In this document: piece after piece, positions 12,457 through 45,379 of the stretch
Layout of the letters: every line of letters starts with the position of its first letter
Position numbering within the stretch: the stretch's first letter is position 1
From: Minisyncoccota bacterium
GTDB taxonomy: Bacteria; Patescibacteriota; Minisyncoccia; UBA6257; GWB1-50-10
Length of the DNA: 45,379 nucleotides
NCBI GenBank assembly: GCA_035573955.1
Contig: DATLZO010000018.1
Span: 1-45,379 of the forward strand
Reading direction: 5' to 3'
The notes under the pieces: model-generated
What the model was told of the DNA's origin: nothing
Databases searched by the model: none
Seen by the model: only the letters and a program-made list of their open reading frames with translations
Made by a program: the position numbers and the translations under genes

Positions 12457-13104
12457 ATGCCGGAGGTTTCATTACCAACACAAAAATTCGTAGAGGTCGC
12501 CGATATCAAAAACGGCGTGGTTTACCTCAAGAGGGGTGGCCTGCGCAAGGTGCTGATAGTAGGTGGCATCAATTTCGACCTCAAATCCGAGGCCGAACAA
12601 AACCTCATTCTCCAAAGCTTCCAGAATTTTTTGAACACGCTCGATTTCGGCGTCCAGTTCTTCATTCACTCGCGAAAAATCAACATCAATGAATACCTCG
12701 AAAAATTGAGGGCGCGGAAAGAGGAAGAACAAAACGAGCTGCTCAAAGTCCAAATCGAAGACTATGCCGAGTTTATCAGGGCGTTCGTTGAAGAAAATTC
12801 TATCATCAGCAAAGATTTCTTTGTGGTCGTCCCATACGACCCGATCACCGTTGCCGCCCAAGCCAAGGGCTTACTTGGCCTTTTTAAGAAGGCGCCGACA
12901 AAAAAAGAGGAGACAGCCAAAGAAGAAAGAGATAGAAAAAATATCGAGGAATTGGAACAACGCGCAAATGAAGTCGTTAGCGGTCTTGAGCAAATAGGCC
13001 TCCGGGCAACGGCTCTCGAAGACGAGGAATTAATTGAACTCTTCTACAACCTTTACAACCCCCAACTCGTAGAGAAAAAAGATCTGGAGATAGCAAAAAA
13101 ATAA
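12457..13104 (+). CDS. TrsD/TraC-like accessory protein of the VirB4 module
   Basis: GINFDLKSEAEQ...FQNFLNTLDF.VQFFI.SRK, DFFVVVPY and ELFYNLYNP. Sits between prgI and virB4, 1 nt before the virB4 start. Confidence 0.7.
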   Translation: MPEVSLPTQKFVEVADIKNGVVYLKRGGLRKVLIVGGINFDLKSEAEQNLILQSFQNFLNTLDFGVQFFIHSRKININEYLEKLRARKEEEQNELLKVQIEDYAEFIRAFVEENSIISKDFFVVVPYDPITVAAQAKGLLGLFKKAPTKKEETAKEERDRKNIEELEQRANEVVSGLEQIGLRATALEDEELIELFYNLYNPQLVEKKDLEIAKK

Positions 13105-13105
13105 A

Positions 13106-14869
13106 ATGGAATACGATACCGACAAGATAAAAATTACCAAACCCTACACGCCGGGCGAGGAAGATATCCCGAACGTCATCGCACCGGCCGGGATGGAGGT
13201 AAATTCCAACTACCTGAAAATCGGTGACTATTTCGCGAAGACTTTTTTCGTCTTCACTTACCCTCGTTACGTCGCGAGCGGCTGGTTCTCGCCGGTCATC
13301 AATCTCGCCGAGATGATGGATATTTCAATTATCATCCATCCGATGGACACGGCACTCGCCTTAAAAAACCTCCGAAAGAAAGTGGCACAAGTGGAAGCGG
13401 AAATTGCCGAGAAACAGGAGAAAGGGCTTGTGCGCGACCCGATACTCGAAACAGCCTATCAGGATATCGAGAACCTCCGCGACGCCCTCCAACAAGCTCG
13501 GGAAAAACTTTTCGAAGTCGGCGTTTATATAACTATCTACAGCTCGAATCTGGAGAACTTGAATAAACTTGAGAAAACACTGGAAAATCTCCTCGAGAGC
13601 AAGTTGGTCTACATAAAACCTGCTCTCTTCCGGCATCTCGAAGGCTTCAATTCGGTGCTTCCCATCGCCCAAGACAGCCTTGGTGTCCGGACCCCATTGA
13701 ATTCGAGCCCCACCTCGTCGCTTTTCCCTTTCATCTCGCCGGATCTCACCTCTGACAAGGGCATCCTCTACGGCGTGAACCTCCACAACAATTCTCTCGT
13801 CATCTTCGACCGCTTTTCTCTCGAGAACGCAAACAGCGTCGTTTTCGCTAAATCCGGCAGCGGCAAATCATACACCACAAAACTCGAGATAATTCGATCA
13901 TTAATGATGGGCACGAACGTTATCGTCATTGACCCCGAGAATGAGTACGAGAACCTAGCGAACGCCGTGGGGGGGAGTTACTTCCGGATATCTCTCACCT
14001 CCCAGAACCACGTTAATCCCTTTGATATCCCCATCATCCCGCAAGGCGAGGAGCCGGCTGACGTCTTCAAATCGCACATCTTGAACCTCGCCGGTCTCGT
14101 AAAACTCATGCTCGGGGAAGTGACGCCCGAGGAAGACGCCATTTTGGACCGTGTTATCACCGAAACCTATGCCTCGCGCGACATCACCGCCGAAAATTTC
14201 GGCAAGATTGTGGAGCTCCGCCCGCTGCTCCTTGAAGATCTCCAGACCATTCTTCAAAACACCGAGGGCGGTCGGACGCTCGGAAACCGGCTCGATAAAT
14301 TTACTCATGGTTCCTACGCCGGTTTTACCAACGCGCCGACGAACGTTGATATCAAGAACCGCCTGATCGTCTTTTCCATCCGGGATCTGGAGGAAGAACT
14401 GCGGCCAATTGCAATGTATATCGTCCTCAATTTCGTCTGGAATCTGGTGAGAGGAGAACTTAGGCGGCGACTCCTTATAATCGATGAGGCTTGGTGGATG
14501 ATGAAATACAAGGATTCGGCATCTTTCCTTTTCGGTCTCGTGAAAAGGGCGAGAAAGTACTTTCTGGGCGTCACTACTATTACCCAAGACGTGGAAGATT
14601 TCTTGAGATCCGATTACGGCCGGCCCATTGTCACCAACTCCTCGCTCCAACTGCTGATGAAGCAGTCGCCAACTTCGATAAACTCGGTGGCCCAGGCTTT
14701 TAACTTGACCGAGGGTGAGAAAACTTTTCTTCTGGAATCGGCAGTCGGCGAGGGGCTTTTCTTTGCAGGATTAAAGCATGTGGCCATTAAAGTCATTGCT
14801 TCCTACACCGAGGACCAGATCATTACCACCAACCCGGAGCAGATACTGGAACAAAAGGGGTTAAAATAA
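13106..14869 (+). CDS. virB4: VirB4/TrsE-like conjugation/T4SS ATPase
   Basis: GILYGVN, DRFSLENANSVVF, Walker A AKSGSGKS, VIVIDPENEY, Walker B LLIIDEAW, KRARKY, TITQDVEDF and GEGLFF. Confidence 0.9.
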   Translation: MEYDTDKIKITKPYTPGEEDIPNVIAPAGMEVNSNYLKIGDYFAKTFFVFTYPRYVASGWFSPVINLAEMMDISIIIHPMDTALALKNLRKKVAQVEAEIAEKQEKGLVRDPILETAYQDIENLRDALQQAREKLFEVGVYITIYSSNLENLNKLEKTLENLLESKLVYIKPALFRHLEGFNSVLPIAQDSLGVRTPLNSSPTSSLFPFISPDLTSDKGILYGVNLHNNSLVIFDRFSLENANSVVFAKSGSGKSYTTKLEIIRSLMMGTNVIVIDPENEYENLANAVGGSYFRISLTSQNHVNPFDIPIIPQGEEPADVFKSHILNLAGLVKLMLGEVTPEEDAILDRVITETYASRDITAENFGKIVELRPLLLEDLQTILQNTEGGRTLGNRLDKFTHGSYAGFTNAPTNVDIKNRLIVFSIRDLEEELRPIAMYIVLNFVWNLVRGELRRRLLIIDEAWWMMKYKDSASFLFGLVKRARKYFLGVTTITQDVEDFLRSDYGRPIVTNSSLQLLMKQSPTSINSVAQAFNLTEGEKTFLLESAVGEGLFFAGLKHVAIKVIASYTEDQIITTNPEQILEQKGLK

Positions 14870-40103: not shown

Positions 40104-40388
40104 ATGGGATTCTTTTCAGGGTTGTTTTCCAAAAAGTCCGAAGGACCAAAGCCGATAGGTGTTGTTACCCACTATTACGGGGGGTTGGGCGTTGCCATTG
40201 TAAAGTTCAACCGAGCGGTCAAGGTGGGTGAAACTGTCCATTTCAAGGGCGCGACGACTGACTTCAAACAGACCATAAAATCGATGCAGTACGACCATAA
40301 GGAGATTACAGAGGCCGGTAAGAACCAAGAAGTCGGTGTCAAAGTTTCGGATAAAGTTCGGGAAGGTGACCGCGTCTACGAGACTTGA
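40104..40388 (+). CDS. Stand-alone beta-barrel (U32 peptidase C-terminal / EF-Tu domain II-like)
   Basis: IGVVTHYYG.LGVAIVK...VKVGETVHFKG..TDF.QTI.SMQ.DH..I..A...EVG.KV...VREGD.VY. Confidence 0.75.
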   Translation: MGFFSGLFSKKSEGPKPIGVVTHYYGGLGVAIVKFNRAVKVGETVHFKGATTDFKQTIKSMQYDHKEITEAGKNQEVGVKVSDKVREGDRVYET

Positions 40389-40398
40389 AAACTGTTTC

Positions 40399-41511
40399 AT
40401 GAGCCGAGATTCTATTTTGGCCGCAAGCATTCTTGCAGGTACGACTATTGGTGCAGGAATTTTTTCCTTGCCATATGTTTTCAACAAAATCGGCGTCTTC
40501 GCCGGATTTTTTTATCTCATTTTCTTTGCCTGCGTCTACGTCACGGTATATCTCATGTATGCTTCGGTTCTCCGGACGCGGAGCGGGCGGCACGACTTTT
40601 CCTATTTTGCCGAACTGTATCTCCCTAAAACCGTTGCCAAGTTCGCTTCTTTTGCAATTCTCGCGGAGGCGATCTTTGTTCTCACTATCTATCTTATTCT
40701 CGCTCCGACTTTTATTTCTCTTATCGCCGAGGTGGAATGGTTCTACGCCGTCTTCGCATTCTGGCTCTTTGGTTCCATCTTCGTCTTCGCAAGTCTCCTC
40801 TGGCAGGGAATGGCCGAGCTTTTAGGAACGCTTGCAATCATCTTCATCATCTTTGTAGTCGTTTTTTTGGGAGGTTGGAGCGGCGATGGCTTGCCGATTG
40901 TGAAACCACTGAATATCGAATCGTTCCTCCTGCCTTTTGGGCCTCTTCTCTTTTCCTTCGCCGCGAGGGTGGCGATCTCCCGTATGGTTGACGAGGAACG
41001 GGCAGCTCGGCGCGCCCGGCGGCCCTTCTCTCTCCGGGGAGCGATAATTGTCGGCACTTTCATACCGGCACTCGTCTATTTCTTATTTGTTCTGGGGATC
41101 TTGGGTCTTTCCTCTGATGTGACGCCGGAGGCCTTGAACGGTCTTACGGAACTACCCGCCCCCCTCATCGCGACTTTCGGAGTCCTCGGCCTCATAACTA
41201 TTTGGACGTCGTATTTCATGATCGGCGCGAATTTCCGCGAAATCCTTATCGAAGACAAAAAAGTGCGCCCTCTCCTTGCTTCGGCACTCGTTATTTTTCT
41301 ACCACTCGGATTTTATTTCGCCGGCTTGAGAGATTTTCTTGAAACACTTTCCTTCACTGGCGGCGTTTTTCTCAGCCTTGAAGGCATCTTCCTTGTTACC
41401 ATTTGGCGTCGGGCTTTCCCGGAGCATCCTTGGAAAAAGTTGAGCTACCCCCTTTATCTTGTATTTTCAGTCGCTCTAATCTACGCTGTTTTTGACGCCC
41501 TCGTAGTTTAA
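40399..41511 (+). CDS. Aromatic/hydroxy amino-acid permease (Trp/Tyr permease-like)
   Basis: Likely ATG at 40399. GTTIGAGIFSLP, ~11 TM helices, PFGPLLFSF and IWTSYF. Confidence 0.85.
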   Translation: MSRDSILAASILAGTTIGAGIFSLPYVFNKIGVFAGFFYLIFFACVYVTVYLMYASVLRTRSGRHDFSYFAELYLPKTVAKFASFAILAEAIFVLTIYLILAPTFISLIAEVEWFYAVFAFWLFGSIFVFASLLWQGMAELLGTLAIIFIIFVVVFLGGWSGDGLPIVKPLNIESFLLPFGPLLFSFAARVAISRMVDEERAARRARRPFSLRGAIIVGTFIPALVYFLFVLGILGLSSDVTPEALNGLTELPAPLIATFGVLGLITIWTSYFMIGANFREILIEDKKVRPLLASALVIFLPLGFYFAGLRDFLETLSFTGGVFLSLEGIFLVTIWRRAFPEHPWKKLSYPLYLVFSVALIYAVFDALVV

Positions 41512-41568
41512 CGGATAAAACGCCTCCCTCCGGAGGAGGTGATAGGGGTTCAATTCCTCTCGAGGGCA
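41497..41568 (+). tRNA. trnR: tRNA-Arg (anticodon CCG)
   Basis: Acceptor stem GCCCTCG/CGAGGGC, D-arm GTTT..AAAC, anticodon stem CCTCC/GGAGG with loop CT-CCG-GA, T-arm AGGGG-TTCAATT-CCTCT, discriminator A. CCA is not encoded. Confidence 0.96.
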
Positions 41569-41581
41569 CAAATCCCAAAAC

Positions 41582-41612
41582 GGCTCAACATTTGAGCCAT
41601 TTTTATTTTTGT
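41582..41612 (+). terminator. Terminator after the tRNA
   Basis: GGCTCA-ACATT-TGAGCC followed by ATTTTTATTTTT. Confidence 0.65.
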
Positions 41613-41637
41613 CGGATGGTATTGGTTAAATCGCGCC

Positions 41638-41672
41638 GGGAGCGACCCGAAAAGGTCGCTCCCACTTTTTTT
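41638..41672 (+). terminator. Second strong terminator-like hairpin
   Basis: GGGAGCGACC-CGAAAA-GGTCGCTCCC (10-bp perfect stem) followed by ACTTTTTTT. Confidence 0.7.
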
Positions 41673-41698
41673 CTCTGCTATTATGGTGGGGAAACGTC

Positions 41699-42643
41699 AT
41701 GAAAGTTAGGAAGAATATCTCGCTTGCGCCGTTGAGCACTTTCCGCATTGGGGGGCGGGCGGATTTTTTTTGTCTGGTTAAGGAACCGACGGATTTGTTT
41801 GAAGCGGTAGAGTTCGCCAGAAACAAAAAAATTCCCTACCGTATTTTAGCGGGCGGCAGTAACATTGTTTTTCCTGATGGCAGATTCAAAGGCCTCCTCA
41901 TTAAAATTTCGGACGGCGGCATTGTTAAAGACAAAAACCGGCTCATTGTCGGTGCGGGCGTTGCTCTCGAGGAGGTTATCAAAAAATCCATCTCGGCGGG
42001 ACTCAAGGGCTTGGAGACACTATCCGGTATTCCCGGCACCTTGGGTGGGGCAATCGTCGGGAACGCCGGCGCTTACGGCCATTCCATTTCCGAAGTCGTA
42101 GAGCGAGTCAAGGTTTGGGATCCCGTCGGAGGACAAAATCTCTCTAAAGGTGCAGGTAGTAAGGGTTTCTTTTGGATTTCTAAAAAAGATTGCAAATTTC
42201 GTTATCGGGAAAGCGTTTTCAAGCACAAGCCCTACATTGTTGTTTGTGCTGTCCTTAAGTTCAAAAATGGTAATTCAAAAAATCTAAGGAAAATCTCCCG
42301 CGACATTATTAAATTGCGTCTCAAAAAGTACAAACCAGGCCTGAGATGTCCGGGCAGTTTCTTTAAAAATGTTCTTGTCAGCGAAGTTTCTAAAAAATCA
42401 CTTTTAAAGATAAACAAATCAAAGATTATAGAAGGCAAAATCCCCGCCGGCTACTTATTGGAAGAAGTCGGGGCGAAAGGTATGCGTGTGGGCGGCATTG
42501 AAATAGCAAACTTCCACGGAAACCTTCTTATAAACCGAGGCGGTGCCAGAGCGGCCGATGTTAGAAAGCTTGCGGCGCTTCTAAAGAAGCGTGTTTTTGA
42601 AAAATTTGGCATTCGGCTGGAGGAAGAAATACGCTATTTCTAA
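41699..42643 (+). CDS. murB: UDP-N-acetylenolpyruvoylglucosamine reductase
   Basis: STFRIGG.A, GGSNIVF.D, GLETLSGIPGTLGGA..GNAGAYG, FRYRES, GSFFKN, HGNLLIN and LEEEIR. Confidence 0.96.
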   Translation: MKVRKNISLAPLSTFRIGGRADFFCLVKEPTDLFEAVEFARNKKIPYRILAGGSNIVFPDGRFKGLLIKISDGGIVKDKNRLIVGAGVALEEVIKKSISAGLKGLETLSGIPGTLGGAIVGNAGAYGHSISEVVERVKVWDPVGGQNLSKGAGSKGFFWISKKDCKFRYRESVFKHKPYIVVCAVLKFKNGNSKNLRKISRDIIKLRLKKYKPGLRCPGSFFKNVLVSEVSKKSLLKINKSKIIEGKIPAGYLLEEVGAKGMRVGGIEIANFHGNLLINRGGARAADVRKLAALLKKRVFEKFGIRLEEEIRYF

Positions 42644-42654
42644 GGGTTTAGAGC

Positions 42655-42700
42655 GCCGGTGGTAACTTTAATACTTTAAGTACACCACCCGGCAATTTTT
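42655..42700 (+). terminator. Probable terminator after murB
   Basis: GCCGGTGGT / ACCACCCGGC bulged stem followed by AATTTTTGTTCTTTT. Confidence 0.5.
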
Positions 42701-42724
42701 GTTCTTTTCTATAATTAAATAAGA

Positions 42725-43339
42725 ATGGACAATAAGGCGGAATTACTCAAAGCTCTTGAGAGAGAAATGGAAGCCGACAGATCGCTCCCGCTTCAAGAAT
42801 CCAATCTTGTTTTCGGTGAAGGCAATCCCGATTGCAAGGTGATGTTTATAGGCGAAGGGCCAGGATTTTACGAAGATAAAATGAAGCGTCCCTTTGTGGG
42901 CCGAGCCGGCCAGCTCCTCGACCGGCTGATAGCCGGCATCGGCTGGAGAAGGGAGGATGTTTACATAACTAACATCGTGAAGCGTCGACCACCCGAAAAC
43001 CGCGACCCGTTTCCCAACGAAATAGCGGCCTATGCTCCCTACCTAACGCGGCAGATAGAGATTATTGGGCCCACAGTCATCGTCCCGCTCGGCCGCTTTG
43101 CGATGAATTACTTTTTGCCGCAGGCAAAAATATCGCGTGACCAGGGAAAACTTTTTAAATCCGGCGGCCGCTACATCTATCCACTTTTTCATCCGGCGGC
43201 GGCGCTGCGCGGCACGGAGACACTGAACGCTTTGACATCAAGTTTCATGAAATTACCGGATATGCTGAAAAAACTCGACGCGGTTGCCGAAATCGTCGCC
43301 GACGAGAAGAAGGGAAGCGCTCAAGAAAGTCTGTTTTAA
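42725..43339 (+). CDS. Family-4-type uracil-DNA glycosylase lacking the Fe-S Cys ligands
   Basis: VFGEGNP, MFIGEGPG..ED...RPFVGRAG, YITNIVK.RPP.NRDP, LGRFA and FHPAAAL. Confidence 0.9.
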   Translation: MDNKAELLKALEREMEADRSLPLQESNLVFGEGNPDCKVMFIGEGPGFYEDKMKRPFVGRAGQLLDRLIAGIGWRREDVYITNIVKRRPPENRDPFPNEIAAYAPYLTRQIEIIGPTVIVPLGRFAMNYFLPQAKISRDQGKLFKSGGRYIYPLFHPAAALRGTETLNALTSSFMKLPDMLKKLDAVAEIVADEKKGSAQESLF

Positions 43340-43400
43340 AGAAGCGAGGGGTGAAATTCCCAGCAGCAAAGTTCAGAGCTCATTCCGTTATAATTAGTAT

Positions 43401-43742
43401 ATGAATTTCGCGCTGATCTACGTTTTGGAAAGGTTTTTCTACAGAATCTACCGCTTTTTAGACCACTGGTATGTGAGAAGCGTCAAAATCTATTCCAATT
43501 TCATTCTTGATCTTTTGGGCCGCGTCGACTATTACCTTGCTTGGAAGATAACCCTCCGCCACCTCTTCGAACCGCTTTATAAGGACTATTCCGTCCTAGG
43601 TTATGTTCTAGGTTTCGTTTTTCGGATCTCGCGGTTAGTGGGCGCCGGTATTTGCTACCTCATTATTTTTATCTTTGCCATCGCCGCCTATCTTACTTGG
43701 TTGCTCTTCATTCCCTACGCCGTTTACAAGATATTCACCTAA
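43401..43742 (+). CDS. Small membrane protein coupled to the Clp-type ATPase
   Basis: 113 aa. FLDHWY, LFEPLYKDYSVLGYVLGFVFR and a C-terminal hydrophobic hairpin. Its stop directly abuts the next ATG. Confidence 0.75.
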   Translation: MNFALIYVLERFFYRIYRFLDHWYVRSVKIYSNFILDLLGRVDYYLAWKITLRHLFEPLYKDYSVLGYVLGFVFRISRLVGAGICYLIIFIFAIAAYLTWLLFIPYAVYKIFT

Positions 43743-45379
43743 ATGACTGTATTTTTCGAGGACAAGAGACTTTATCTCACGCGCGGTGGGGAATTCCTGA
43801 CGCGTCTCTTTTCCTCCGTCTCTTATTTCTTCCTTGCGGCCGCAACAGCCGTTCTTTTTCTCTCGGAATCCGGGAATCAAATATGGCTTGCTGTCATTCT
43901 CACGCTCTTTCTCGCCGACCGTCTACTCCATTTCAACGAGGCGGAAAAATCGCTCGGGGAGTTGAAGGAAGAAAAAGCTAATCTCGCCGATTTTGCGACG
44001 CCGGCTGTCCACAGCATTATCCGCCGCGCCTTTTTCAAATCCCGAGTTCTCCGACAGGATTTTTACCTCACTATTTTCAAGGAGCTCATCTTAAATCGCG
44101 ATGTCGAGGAAATTCTCAGGCGGCTCAGCGTGCCGCCGGAGGAAATTCTCGCAAAAGTTGAGGAAAAATTGGACGACAGCGCTGTCACCGAAAGCCGGAC
44201 CGAGGTTCTCAAAAAAATCGAGGAACTTGTTGTTGCCGCTTGTGAGAATGCCAAGAAGACACACGAACGTTTCATTGAACCGAGAAATGTTTTTGCTGCA
44301 CTATGCACCTTGCGCAACAACGCGGCGATTGCAAATCTTTTCTCACTTTTTGAAATCGAGACGCTCGATCTGGAAGAGGCGGCGGTTTTCGGCCGTTTCC
44401 GCCGGAAATTCTCCCGACTTAGCCGTTTACCGTCTGCTTTGGGCGGTTTTGCCCACCGCCCTCGGTTTTTACGGAAGCGCGTTATGAACCGCGCTTGGAC
44501 GGCAAGACCGACGCCGCTTTTAGACCAGTTCAGTGAGGACCTTACCAATCTGGCCCGGGAGGAGAAGATCGGTTTTCTCATCGGTCATGAGAAAGAATTC
44601 AACGAGATACTTTCGGTTATTTCCAGACCGGGTAAACCCAACGTGCTTCTTATCGGCGAGCCCGGAGTGGGGAAGTCAACTGTTATCGCTCACCTCGCCT
44701 TTCGAATGGTGAAAGACGATGTTCCGCCCATACTATTCGACAAACGTCTGGTCAAGTTGGAGCTTTCCTCGCTCCTTTCCGGAGCGACGCCGGAGATTAT
44801 TGCCGAACGTCTCCAGCAGATAGCCGATGAGATAATCACCGCAGATAATATCGTTCTATTCATTCCCAACATCCACGACTTTTTCCGGACGGGGACGGAG
44901 AGGACGCTCTCGGCCATTGATTTTTTCTTACCCCTCATCAAGCGTGACGGTATTCCTGTAATAGGTGAGACTTTTCCGCGCGAATTCAAGGAATACATTG
45001 AACCGCGCACGGATTTCTTGAGCCAGTTCGAAACGGTGAGGATAGAAGAAATATCCATCGAGGAGGCTTATCGCTTTCTTATCTATAACAGTCTTATCTT
45101 AGAAAAAGAGTTTAAGAAAGAAATTTCCCTGCGAGCGGTTAAGGGCGCTGTGCGGCTCGCCCACCGCTATTTTCGTAATCGCCTTCTACCTGGTTCGGCA
45201 GTCGATCTTTTGAAGCACGCCCTGGTCGAGGCCGACCGACGAGGCGAAAAAATTCTTACCGAGGATTCGGTCACCGCCGTCGCTGAGGCGGAGAGTCGTA
45301 TTCCTATCCAGAAGGCGGGCCGCGATGAAACGGAGAAGCTTCTGAATCTCGAAGAATTAATCCATAAGAAGCTTGTTAA
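43743..45379 (+). CDS. Membrane-anchored ClpA/B/C-like AAA+ ATPase (partial, runs off the window; not in the ORF track)
   Basis: Hand translation from ATG at 43743: two N-terminal hydrophobic helices, MNRAWTARPTP.LDQFSEDLT, IGHEKE, NVLLIGEPGVGKST, RLVKLEL, RYF.NR.LPGSAVDLL and SRIP..K...ETEKLLNLEE.IH. Confidence 0.88.
   Translation, partial: MTVFFEDKRLYLTRGGEFLTRLFSSVSYFFLAAATAVLFLSESGNQIWLAVILTLFLADRLLHFNEAEKSLGELKEEKANLADFATPAVHSIIRRAFFKSRVLRQDFYLTIFKELILNRDVEEILRRLSVPPEEILAKVEEKLDDSAVTESRTEVLKKIEELVVAACENAKKTHERFIEPRNVFAALCTLRNNAAIANLFSLFEIETLDLEEAAVFGRFRRKFSRLSRLPSALGGFAHRPRFLRKRVMNRAWTARPTPLLDQFSEDLTNLAREEKIGFLIGHEKEFNEILSVISRPGKPNVLLIGEPGVGKSTVIAHLAFRMVKDDVPPILFDKRLVKLELSSLLSGATPEIIAERLQQIADEIITADNIVLFIPNIHDFFRTGTERTLSAIDFFLPLIKRDGIPVIGETFPREFKEYIEPRTDFLSQFETVRIEEISIEEAYRFLIYNSLILEKEFKKEISLRAVKGAVRLAHRYFRNRLLPGSAVDLLKHALVEADRRGEKILTEDSVTAVAEAESRIPIQKAGRDETEKLLNLEELIHKKLV

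Follow-up and report, generated by a model that had tools for sequence, protein, structure and literature searches.

A predicted membrane-anchored Clp/Hsp100 paralog with a degenerate first ring and a conserved small membrane partner in Patescibacteria

The gene pair and recovery of the full-length ATPase gene

The window analysed in this study is the whole contig DATLZO010000018.1 (45,379 nucleotides, nt), which is contig C18 of a Minisyncoccota genome of 26 contigs and 592 kb. According to the list of open reading frames (ORFs) its last 2 kb carry two ORFs on the same strand, a gene for a small putative membrane protein and, with its ATG directly abutting the TAA stop codon of the small gene, the 5′ part of a gene for an ATPase of the Clp/Hsp100 group (Table 1). 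This pair, which encodes a predicted membrane-anchored Clp paralog with an apparently inactive first ring and a small membrane partner, is the subject of the present analysis. An earlier interpretation of the same DNA, made from the letters alone (the sequence-only reading), was exact with regard to both ORFs, the abutting 113-residue gene, the motif sequences and the coordinates of the Walker B motif of the first ring.

The encoded part of the ATPase matches the models for the first AAA+ module (D1) of ClpV, ClpA and ClpB with E values of about 1e-45, though every score stays far below the curated cutoff. The remainder of the gene was found outside the window, on bases 1-861 of contig C2. This contig opens in frame with NQEAAVKAVA..., the canonical entry into the second AAA+ module (D2) of Clp proteins, and continues with 286 open codons. 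Joining of C18 and C2 with a 2-nt overlap yields a protein of 831 amino acid residues (aa). The join is supported, since the joined protein aligns without gaps to an 831-aa ortholog from the same genus (71% identity) and is covered to 100% by homologs of 830-831 aa, the number of full-length homologs of this size (about 830 aa) exceeding 100. Furthermore, the gene order across the join (uracil-DNA glycosylase (UDG), small gene, Clp gene, a half-size transporter of the major facilitator superfamily (half-MFS), PolX, NUDIX, Ogt, L20) is the order found on uninterrupted contigs of relatives.

Table 1 Features of the gene pair at the end of the window. TM, transmembrane helix; AF2, AlphaFold2; own ClpB, canonical ClpB-like paralog of the same genome (contig C4)
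Feature	Position	Strand	Residues or sequence	Basis and remarks
-10-like hexamer	43389..43394	+	TATAAT	Read from sequence; 6 nt before small-gene ATG
Small partner gene	43401..43742	+	113-aa ORF	TAA stop at 43740-43742
Clp/Hsp100 paralog, 5′ two thirds	43743..45379	+	aa 1-545	ATG at 43743; ORF open at 3′ end, runs off contig
Predicted N-terminal TM hairpin	43806..43928	+	TM1 aa 22-40, TM2 aa 47-62	Hydropathy, AF2
Divergent Clp_N-like N-domain	43932..44387	+	about aa 64-215	hhalign, ClpA model
Invariant linker motif between N-domain and D1	44478..44516	+	RVMNRAWTARPTP, aa 246-258	Family alignment
D1 Walker A, intact	44655..44678	+	GEPGVGKS (own ClpB GEPGVGKT)	Motif scan, alignments
D1 pore-1 loop	44781..44804	+	GATPEIIA (own ClpB GTKFRGEFE, KYR-type)	Alignments; non-aromatic, acid-rich
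D1 Walker B, degenerate	44856..44879	+	LFIPNIHD (own ClpB LFIDEIH)	Alignments
D1 arginine-finger segment	45015..45029	+	FLSQF (ClpB LERRF)	Alignments; both arginines gone
D1 small (lid) domain, straight into D1-D2 linker	45063..45257	+	aa 441-505	PF17871 AAA_lid_9

Motif states of the two rings and the N-terminal region

The ATPase was aligned by HMMER to Thermus thermophilus ClpB and Bacillus subtilis ClpC and, in addition, to the ClpB-like paralog encoded on contig C4 of its own genome. In the D1 Walker B motif the Mg-binding Asp is replaced by Pro and the catalytic Glu by Asn. LFIPNIH faces LFIDELH in the alignment to the two reference proteins and DFLSQF faces ALERRF; the alignment with the own canonical ClpB agrees, with DFLSQFE lying opposite ALERRFQ. 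In line with the proposal of the sequence-only reading, D1 is predicted to be a catalytically dead pseudo-ATPase.

Two features of D2 could be checked only after recovery of the complete gene. The ATPase motifs, namely Walker A (GPTGVGKT), Walker B (LLDEFEKAH), sensor 1 (ATSN), arginine finger (NRF) and sensor 2 (GARPLRQ), are all intact, and as an ATPase D2 is not degenerate. The ClpP-binding loop is absent: at the docking position ESGRTIG stands opposite KYVGFNV of ClpC, and the own C4 paralog has GLGF. Public records name the ATPase "ATP-dependent Clp protease ATP-binding subunit" or ClpC, and because of the missing docking loop the former label is almost certainly misleading for the membrane Clp paralog. 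The D2 pore-1 loop reads GAPSGERTG, compared to GAPPGYVGYEEGG in T. thermophilus ClpB and GSPPGYVGHEEGG in the own ClpB; a deletion of four residues takes out the tyrosine of the GYVG motif.

The M-domain, which had been described as missing, is indeed absent: the ClpA model aligns as a single stretch (residues 111-815) across the D1-D2 junction, and the ClpB and ClpC alignments break at this junction, with ClpB residues from about 398 to 520 being skipped. Pfam assigns AAA and AAA_lid_9 to the part of the protein encoded in the window, and AAA_2 (1.5e-53) and ClpB_D2-small (7.5e-21) were found in 28 of 28 homologs. The NCBIfam Clp models align as far as residue 827 of the joined protein.

Conservation of the motif states was followed in 28 close homologs and in 44 further ATPases, below called the 44 relatives, of which 25 represent about 22 order-level families and 19 belong to other orders of the same class. 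None of the 44 has the DE pair of the D1 Walker B motif, and Pro occupies the Asp position in 24 of the 25 order-level sequences. Likewise, the arginine-finger pair of D1 and an aromatic residue in the pore loop of either D1 or D2 were found in 0/44 relatives. At the position of the GYVG tyrosine in D2 the residue is variable (K, E, S, A, N or G), and both pore-loop positions are acid-rich, with P-E-E in D1 and P-D-G in D2. The D2 Walker A motif is identical in 44/44 relatives, which also keep the key residues of Walker B, sensor 1, arginine finger and sensor 2 with minor substitutions, and the column of the ClpP-docking loop is gapped in every one of them. Since they are conserved across the relatives and in hundreds of genomes, the unusual motif states appear to be functional and not a product of chance or decay.

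The D1 P-loop varies. GKS is conserved among the 28 close homologs, which represent the clade of the window, other families of the order often have GKE, GKD or GKG, and in other orders G.GR is frequent. The sequence-only reading had proposed that D1 binds ATP without hydrolysing it. Because the P-loop erodes in the wider family, this is plausible for the clade of the window, where the P-loop is kept, but it does not appear to be a property of the whole family.

Residues 22-40 of the ATPase show a Kyte-Doolittle hydropathy of 1.98 and are followed by a second helix that ends in the conserved sequence LFL.DR..H. For an ortholog with 71% identity AF2 predicts helices at residues 14-39 and 44-62 forming a helical hairpin, with a predicted local distance difference test (pLDDT) score of 80-89. 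Membrane topology was assigned from hydropathy and AF2 only. At least one strongly hydrophobic window of 19 residues is present within the first 160 or so residues of 44/44 relatives (start positions 21-144), which agrees with the earlier description as a membrane-tethered Clp/Hsp100 protein, and hydropathy revealed no N-terminal hydrophobic segment in the own canonical ClpB. The sequence-only reading had also assumed that two TM-like helices take the place of the start of the N-domain. The hairpin is present, but it is added ahead of a divergent Clp_N-like domain. A profile of this domain from the family matches the N-domain of the own ClpB in hhalign (probability 89%, E 2.3e-6, 107 columns), the alignment of the ClpA model to the ATPase begins at model position 29, and a precomputed match to PF02861 exists for several homologs; in the protein of the window itself no Pfam match to Clp_N was found.

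In seven relatives from other orders (L034, L036, L037, L038, L040, L047 and L050) an N-terminal CxxCxGxG...CxxCxGxG segment precedes the TM region; the window protein is without this segment. DnaJ_CXXCXGXG (PF00684) is the best Pfam match of this segment in 7/7 of these proteins, or second to the related Anti-TRAP in one of them, though always below the Pfam threshold, and the related zinc fingers BSD2_CRD and Anti-TRAP rank next.

The linker between the N-domain and D1 carries the motif RVMNRAWTARPTP, which is invariant among the 28 close homologs, conserved to at least 88% over the 25 order-level sequences and distinct from ClpB. Apart from the ATPase sites, no family-specific element is conserved more strongly. 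The motif falls into the sole segment of low confidence in the AF2 model, a linker predicted to be disordered. We regard it as a candidate docking site.

The small partner protein, the distribution of the pair and its relation to known systems

The AF2 model of the small protein has a pLDDT of 96.2, with helices at residues 4-46, 48-53 and 65-112. Two long helices form a hairpin and are joined by a conserved PLY.DYS loop, and the C-terminal part, residues 84-108 approximately, is predicted to be a membrane helix (Kyte-Doolittle hydropathy of 2.49 for residues 86-104). The sequences F..HWY and PLY.DYS..GY.GF.FR..R are conserved. Searches of Pfam and NCBIfam gave no match for the protein, and comparison of its fold with the PDB gave no significant match (E at least 7). 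Its profile retrieved 351 representative clusters from a library of 1.8 billion proteins, nearly all of 80-155 aa. A match to P0122 (E 1e-37), a sequence of 1540 aa with 23 tandem repeats, was rejected as an artefact of a translated repeat and does not represent a relative of the partner. Fusions of partner and ATPase were found neither among 39 loci nor among the best 150 of the 351 representative matches.

Among 301 evenly sampled genomes of the order, the N-terminus of the ATPase was detected in 248 (about 82%), with a single match in all except three genomes that have two, and the partner profile matched in 252. Both were detected in 237 genomes and neither in 38, whereas 11 genomes gave the ATPase without the partner and 15 the partner without the ATPase, corresponding to a phylogeny-uncorrected odds ratio of 55. 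The discordant genomes belong to the most divergent families and probably reflect limited sensitivity of the search. In 126 of the 127 genomes with coordinates for both, the partner is the immediate upstream neighbour on the same strand, and the matched segments lie a median of 35 nt apart. Moreover, it directly precedes the ATPase gene in 39 of 39 fetched loci (20/20 from the order and 19/19 from other orders of the class). This bears out the earlier suggestion of a small membrane partner dedicated to the ATPase. In a phylum-wide sample the N-terminus of the ATPase was essentially confined to this order, and the partner profile matched 33 genomes in other orders of the class. At each of the 19 loci from other orders the partner is followed by a TM-anchored Clp paralog with dead D1 and without pore-loop aromatics. 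Unbiased clustering of all flanking ORFs revealed no third neighbour conserved at the class level, and the core is thus a two-gene module. Together the ATPase and the small gene form a conserved module of one class of Patescibacteria. As it is nearly universal in one order of symbionts with minimal genomes, the module probably has an important role at the membrane or envelope of these bacteria of the candidate phyla radiation (CPR).

By fold and domain order the membrane Clp paralog belongs to class I of Clp/Hsp100. The best sequence and fold matches are ClpB and ClpC (PDB ClpB E 2.7e-117, ClpC E 2.3e-116; Foldseek E about 1e-50), with D2 being about 37-38% identical. It shares with ClpA the order Clp_N, D1, D2 without M-domain as well as the D2 ATPase motifs and the D2-small domain. 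In contrast to ClpA it has gained a TM hairpin and lost the D1 Walker B motif, the arginine fingers, the KYR and GYVG tyrosines and the IGL/IGF loop for ClpP docking, and a small membrane partner stands in place of ClpS. Compared to ClpB and ClpC, the membrane anchor and the dead D1 are new and the M-domain and pore tyrosines are missing. The scores against TIGR02639 for ClpA (423 bits, cutoff 993), TIGR03346 for ClpB (473 bits, cutoff 1232) and TIGR03345 for ClpV/TssH (407 bits, cutoff 885) all remain below the curated thresholds, and several of the catalytic and pore-loop features that define these proteins are lacking. A full-text search of the literature found no description of the family.

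The same genome encodes a canonical ClpB-like protein of 874 aa on contig C4 (L010:3445-6069, minus strand), which keeps all motifs and, with 1231.9 bits, practically reaches the ClpB cutoff of 1232.1. It has a long ClpB-type M-domain together with a ClpC-type insertion that carries GLGF at the ClpP-docking position. ClpP is present (C8:4108-4644) and ClpX was not detectable in this genome. From the presence of ClpP, the absence of ClpX and the GLGF loop we conclude that the C4 paralog, and not the membrane Clp paralog, is likely to be the ClpP partner; the membrane Clp paralog was rejected for this role, since the docking loop, which is GLGF in the C4 paralog, is absent from it. The C4 protein, a ClpB/ClpC hybrid, may serve as both disaggregase and ClpP partner.

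Other AAA+ proteins resemble the membrane Clp paralog in single aspects. NSF and PEX1/PEX6 are double-ring AAA+ proteins with one inactive ring, presumably for assembly, while the other ring works. They belong, however, to a different AAA+ clade, are soluble and have active rings with functional pore loops. FtsH, which the own genome encodes on contig C10, and Msp1/ATAD1 likewise have an N-terminal TM anchor that places an AAA+ ring at the membrane surface, but they have a single ring, thread their substrates by means of aromatic pore loops and, in the case of FtsH, carry a protease domain as well. Torsins are Clp-related, membrane-associated and cofactor-dependent proteins without aromatic pore loops (PMC5425593). 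As in Torsin with LAP1/LULL1 in the eukaryotic endoplasmic reticulum and nuclear envelope, membrane association would be mediated by an N-terminal hydrophobic segment and the partner would be membrane-bound. Torsin consists of a single AAA+ module without an arginine finger of its own, which an AAA-like cofactor supplies, whereas the membrane Clp paralog has two modules, its own arginine finger in D2 (NRF, GARPLR) and a built-in pseudo-ATPase D1, and its partner is a simple helical hairpin without AAA-like fold. Torsin appears to be the closest functional analogy; the membrane Clp paralog does not belong to the Torsin family and the likeness would be convergent.

Possible mode of action and neighbouring genes

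Clp/Hsp100 proteins are the textbook case of polypeptide threading by tyrosine pore loops. In ClpA the KYR and GYVG tyrosines contact the substrate and are needed in both D1 and D2, and Tyr-to-Ala exchanges in either ring eliminated or hindered the degradation of all tested substrates (PMC8666677). Because these tyrosines are absent here in both rings, processive threading by the membrane Clp paralog seems unlikely. This also speaks against the earlier proposal of a threading unfoldase or extractor like ClpV or Hsp101, since both pore-1 loops are without the aromatic residue needed for it in all relatives.

We therefore lean, with modest confidence, towards an Hsp100-derived membrane machine that acts as a non-threading remodeller, with D1 as scaffold, D2 as motor and the small protein as partner. 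The N-terminal hairpins would keep the ring at the cytoplasmic side of the membrane. D1 would form a static assembly or scaffold ring beside the membrane, and D2 would be the only motor. ATP hydrolysis would probably not serve processive threading but would power a cycle of conformational change or remodelling that acts on a target associated with the membrane. In a Torsin-like manner, this cycle would work by way of the N-domain, of the conserved motif in the linker and of the small partner, which would cooperate physically with the ATPase. DnaJ-type zinc fingers occur in polypeptide-binding chaperones. Because of such fingers in the relatives from other orders and of the acidic pore loops, the client is probably a protein rather than a nucleic acid.

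A more far-reaching version is put forward only tentatively. The module would be a bacterial non-threading, membrane-embedded Hsp100 machine in which D1 scaffolds D2 and the cycle of D2 is passed to the membrane assembly and the N-domains and not to a polypeptide in the pore, and would thus represent an independent CPR counterpart of the Torsin-cofactor principle, used for assembly or remodelling of an envelope or membrane complex. Twelve hairpin helices would anchor the ring, possibly together with up to six partner hairpins, this stoichiometry being a conjecture.

Several points weigh against a non-threading remodeller. The missing aromatic residues make threading unlikely and nothing more, as other residues of the loops could engage a special substrate; indeed, the conserved acidic loops (P-E-E in D1, P-D-G in D2) suggest that the channel is still under selection. 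The oligomeric state, the membrane insertion and the contact to the partner are features that we infer. The partner is without AAA-like fold and D2 keeps its arginine finger unlike Torsin, and the analogy to Torsin-LAP1 is thus a functional one only. The matches of the zinc-finger relatives to PF00684 have E values from 4.5e-5 to 5e-3 and all lie below the 32.7-bit cutoff, with only one zinc centre present. Finally, the co-occurrence counts ignore phylogeny.

Among the alternatives, a membrane-protein extractor or translocon motor has to be considered, although we judge it unlikely. A D2-powered hexamer would thread a polypeptide through its pore, with the small protein as adaptor or channel subunit, similar to Msp1, to FtsH without protease, to ClpV or to Hsp101. 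Such a machine is consistent with the double-ring Hsp100 architecture, the Clp_N-type domain for substrates or adaptors and the D2 ATPase motifs, which appear fully competent. A D1 ring facing the membrane would have the right geometry for extraction, and ClpA with inactivated D1 hydrolysis still unfolds many substrates (PMC8666677). The zinc fingers of the relatives, with their matches below threshold, would point to polypeptide clients here as well, and acidic residues are retained at the pore-loop positions. All this has to be set against the loss of the KYR tyrosine in D1 and the GYVG tyrosine in D2 in 44/44 relatives and a D2 loop that is four residues shorter; moreover, there is neither a ClpP loop nor a linked secretion gene.

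Cargo other than protein seems improbable. The ATPase could energise or gate a transporter together with the half-MFS protein encoded downstream, whose gene abuts the ATPase stop codon in the own genome and lies next to the ATPase, with a length of 209-229 aa, in 12 of the 20 order-level families. However, the remaining 8 families are without it, only 1 of the 19 loci outside the order has it, and no MFS transporter is known to be driven by an AAA+ ring. Alternatively, the protein could be a nucleic-acid motor for DNA repair or uptake, as genes for UDG, PolX, NUDIX and Ogt flank the module in several genomes; here the linkage of UDG, PolX and NUDIX is local, and acidic pore loops in both rings argue against DNA or RNA in the channel. 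The loss of many canonical motifs in D1 and in both pore loops would also fit a decaying ClpC/ClpB duplicate preceded by a small ORF that arose by chance. This we regard as extremely improbable, given the full-length open frames that 248/301 genomes of the order, and members of other orders, carry almost always in single copy, the D2 ATPase motifs kept in 44/44 relatives and invariant family-specific motifs such as RVMNRAWTARPTP. The partner, too, is conserved down to E 1e-51, with an AF2 pLDDT of 96. A pseudogene or chance ORF was rejected on these conservation data.

The module is thus a natural lineage, spread across much of one class, in which the double ring and one ATPase site of active type were kept and both sets of gripper loops and the catalytic residues of D1 were lost, while a membrane anchor and a small membrane partner were gained. 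If the non-threading remodeller proves true, bacteria would put the Clp/Hsp100 fold to a different kind of output. Cofactor-dependent AAA+ action without threading, of which the Torsins are the poorly understood eukaryotic example, could then be studied in a simple prokaryotic system.

On contig C2 the stop codon of the ATPase is directly followed by the half-MFS gene (L009:881-1516), which encodes 211 aa with six hydrophobic segments and overlaps at its 3′ end with the beginning of PolX. Its product aligns to the MFS_1 profile over the N-terminal half of the model only (E 3.6e-19). MFS proteins of half size are uncommon and would need to dimerise. As a core third subunit the protein was rejected on the counts given above. 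Upstream of the module (window 40336-43339) genes for an amino-acid permease, MurB and a UDG of family-4 type were found, and downstream (contig C2, 1506-4063) genes for PolX-PHP, NUDIX and an Ogt DNA-binding domain. A DNA-repair operon was rejected, as the linkage is partial within the order and the 19 loci from other orders have NUDIX in 3, PolX in 2 and UDG or Ogt in none.

Apart from the hexamer listed in Table 1, no promoter or ribosome-binding elements were recognised: a consensus promoter scan gave no full sigma-70 site, and no Shine-Dalgarno sequence was found between the hexamer and the ATG of the small gene (43389-43400) or at the ATPase ATG. The small gene may be expressed from a leaderless transcript or one with a very short leader, and translation of the ATPase may be coupled to it.

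The small partner was the only conserved neighbour at the loci, so that no type VI secretion genes accompany the module there; such genes were not searched for elsewhere in the genome. A connection to a pilus or a type IV secretion system, which the sequence-only reading had considered, was rejected, as the sole VirB4-like gene lies 29 kb upstream and none recurs beside the module, although VirB4 co-occurrence was not counted over whole genomes of the order. This VirB4/CagE-like gene (window 12457-14869, plus strand) consists of a 215-aa ORF and a neighbouring ORF of 587 aa, which match profile positions 19-186 and 249-726, respectively, and represent either a split gene or naturally two genes.

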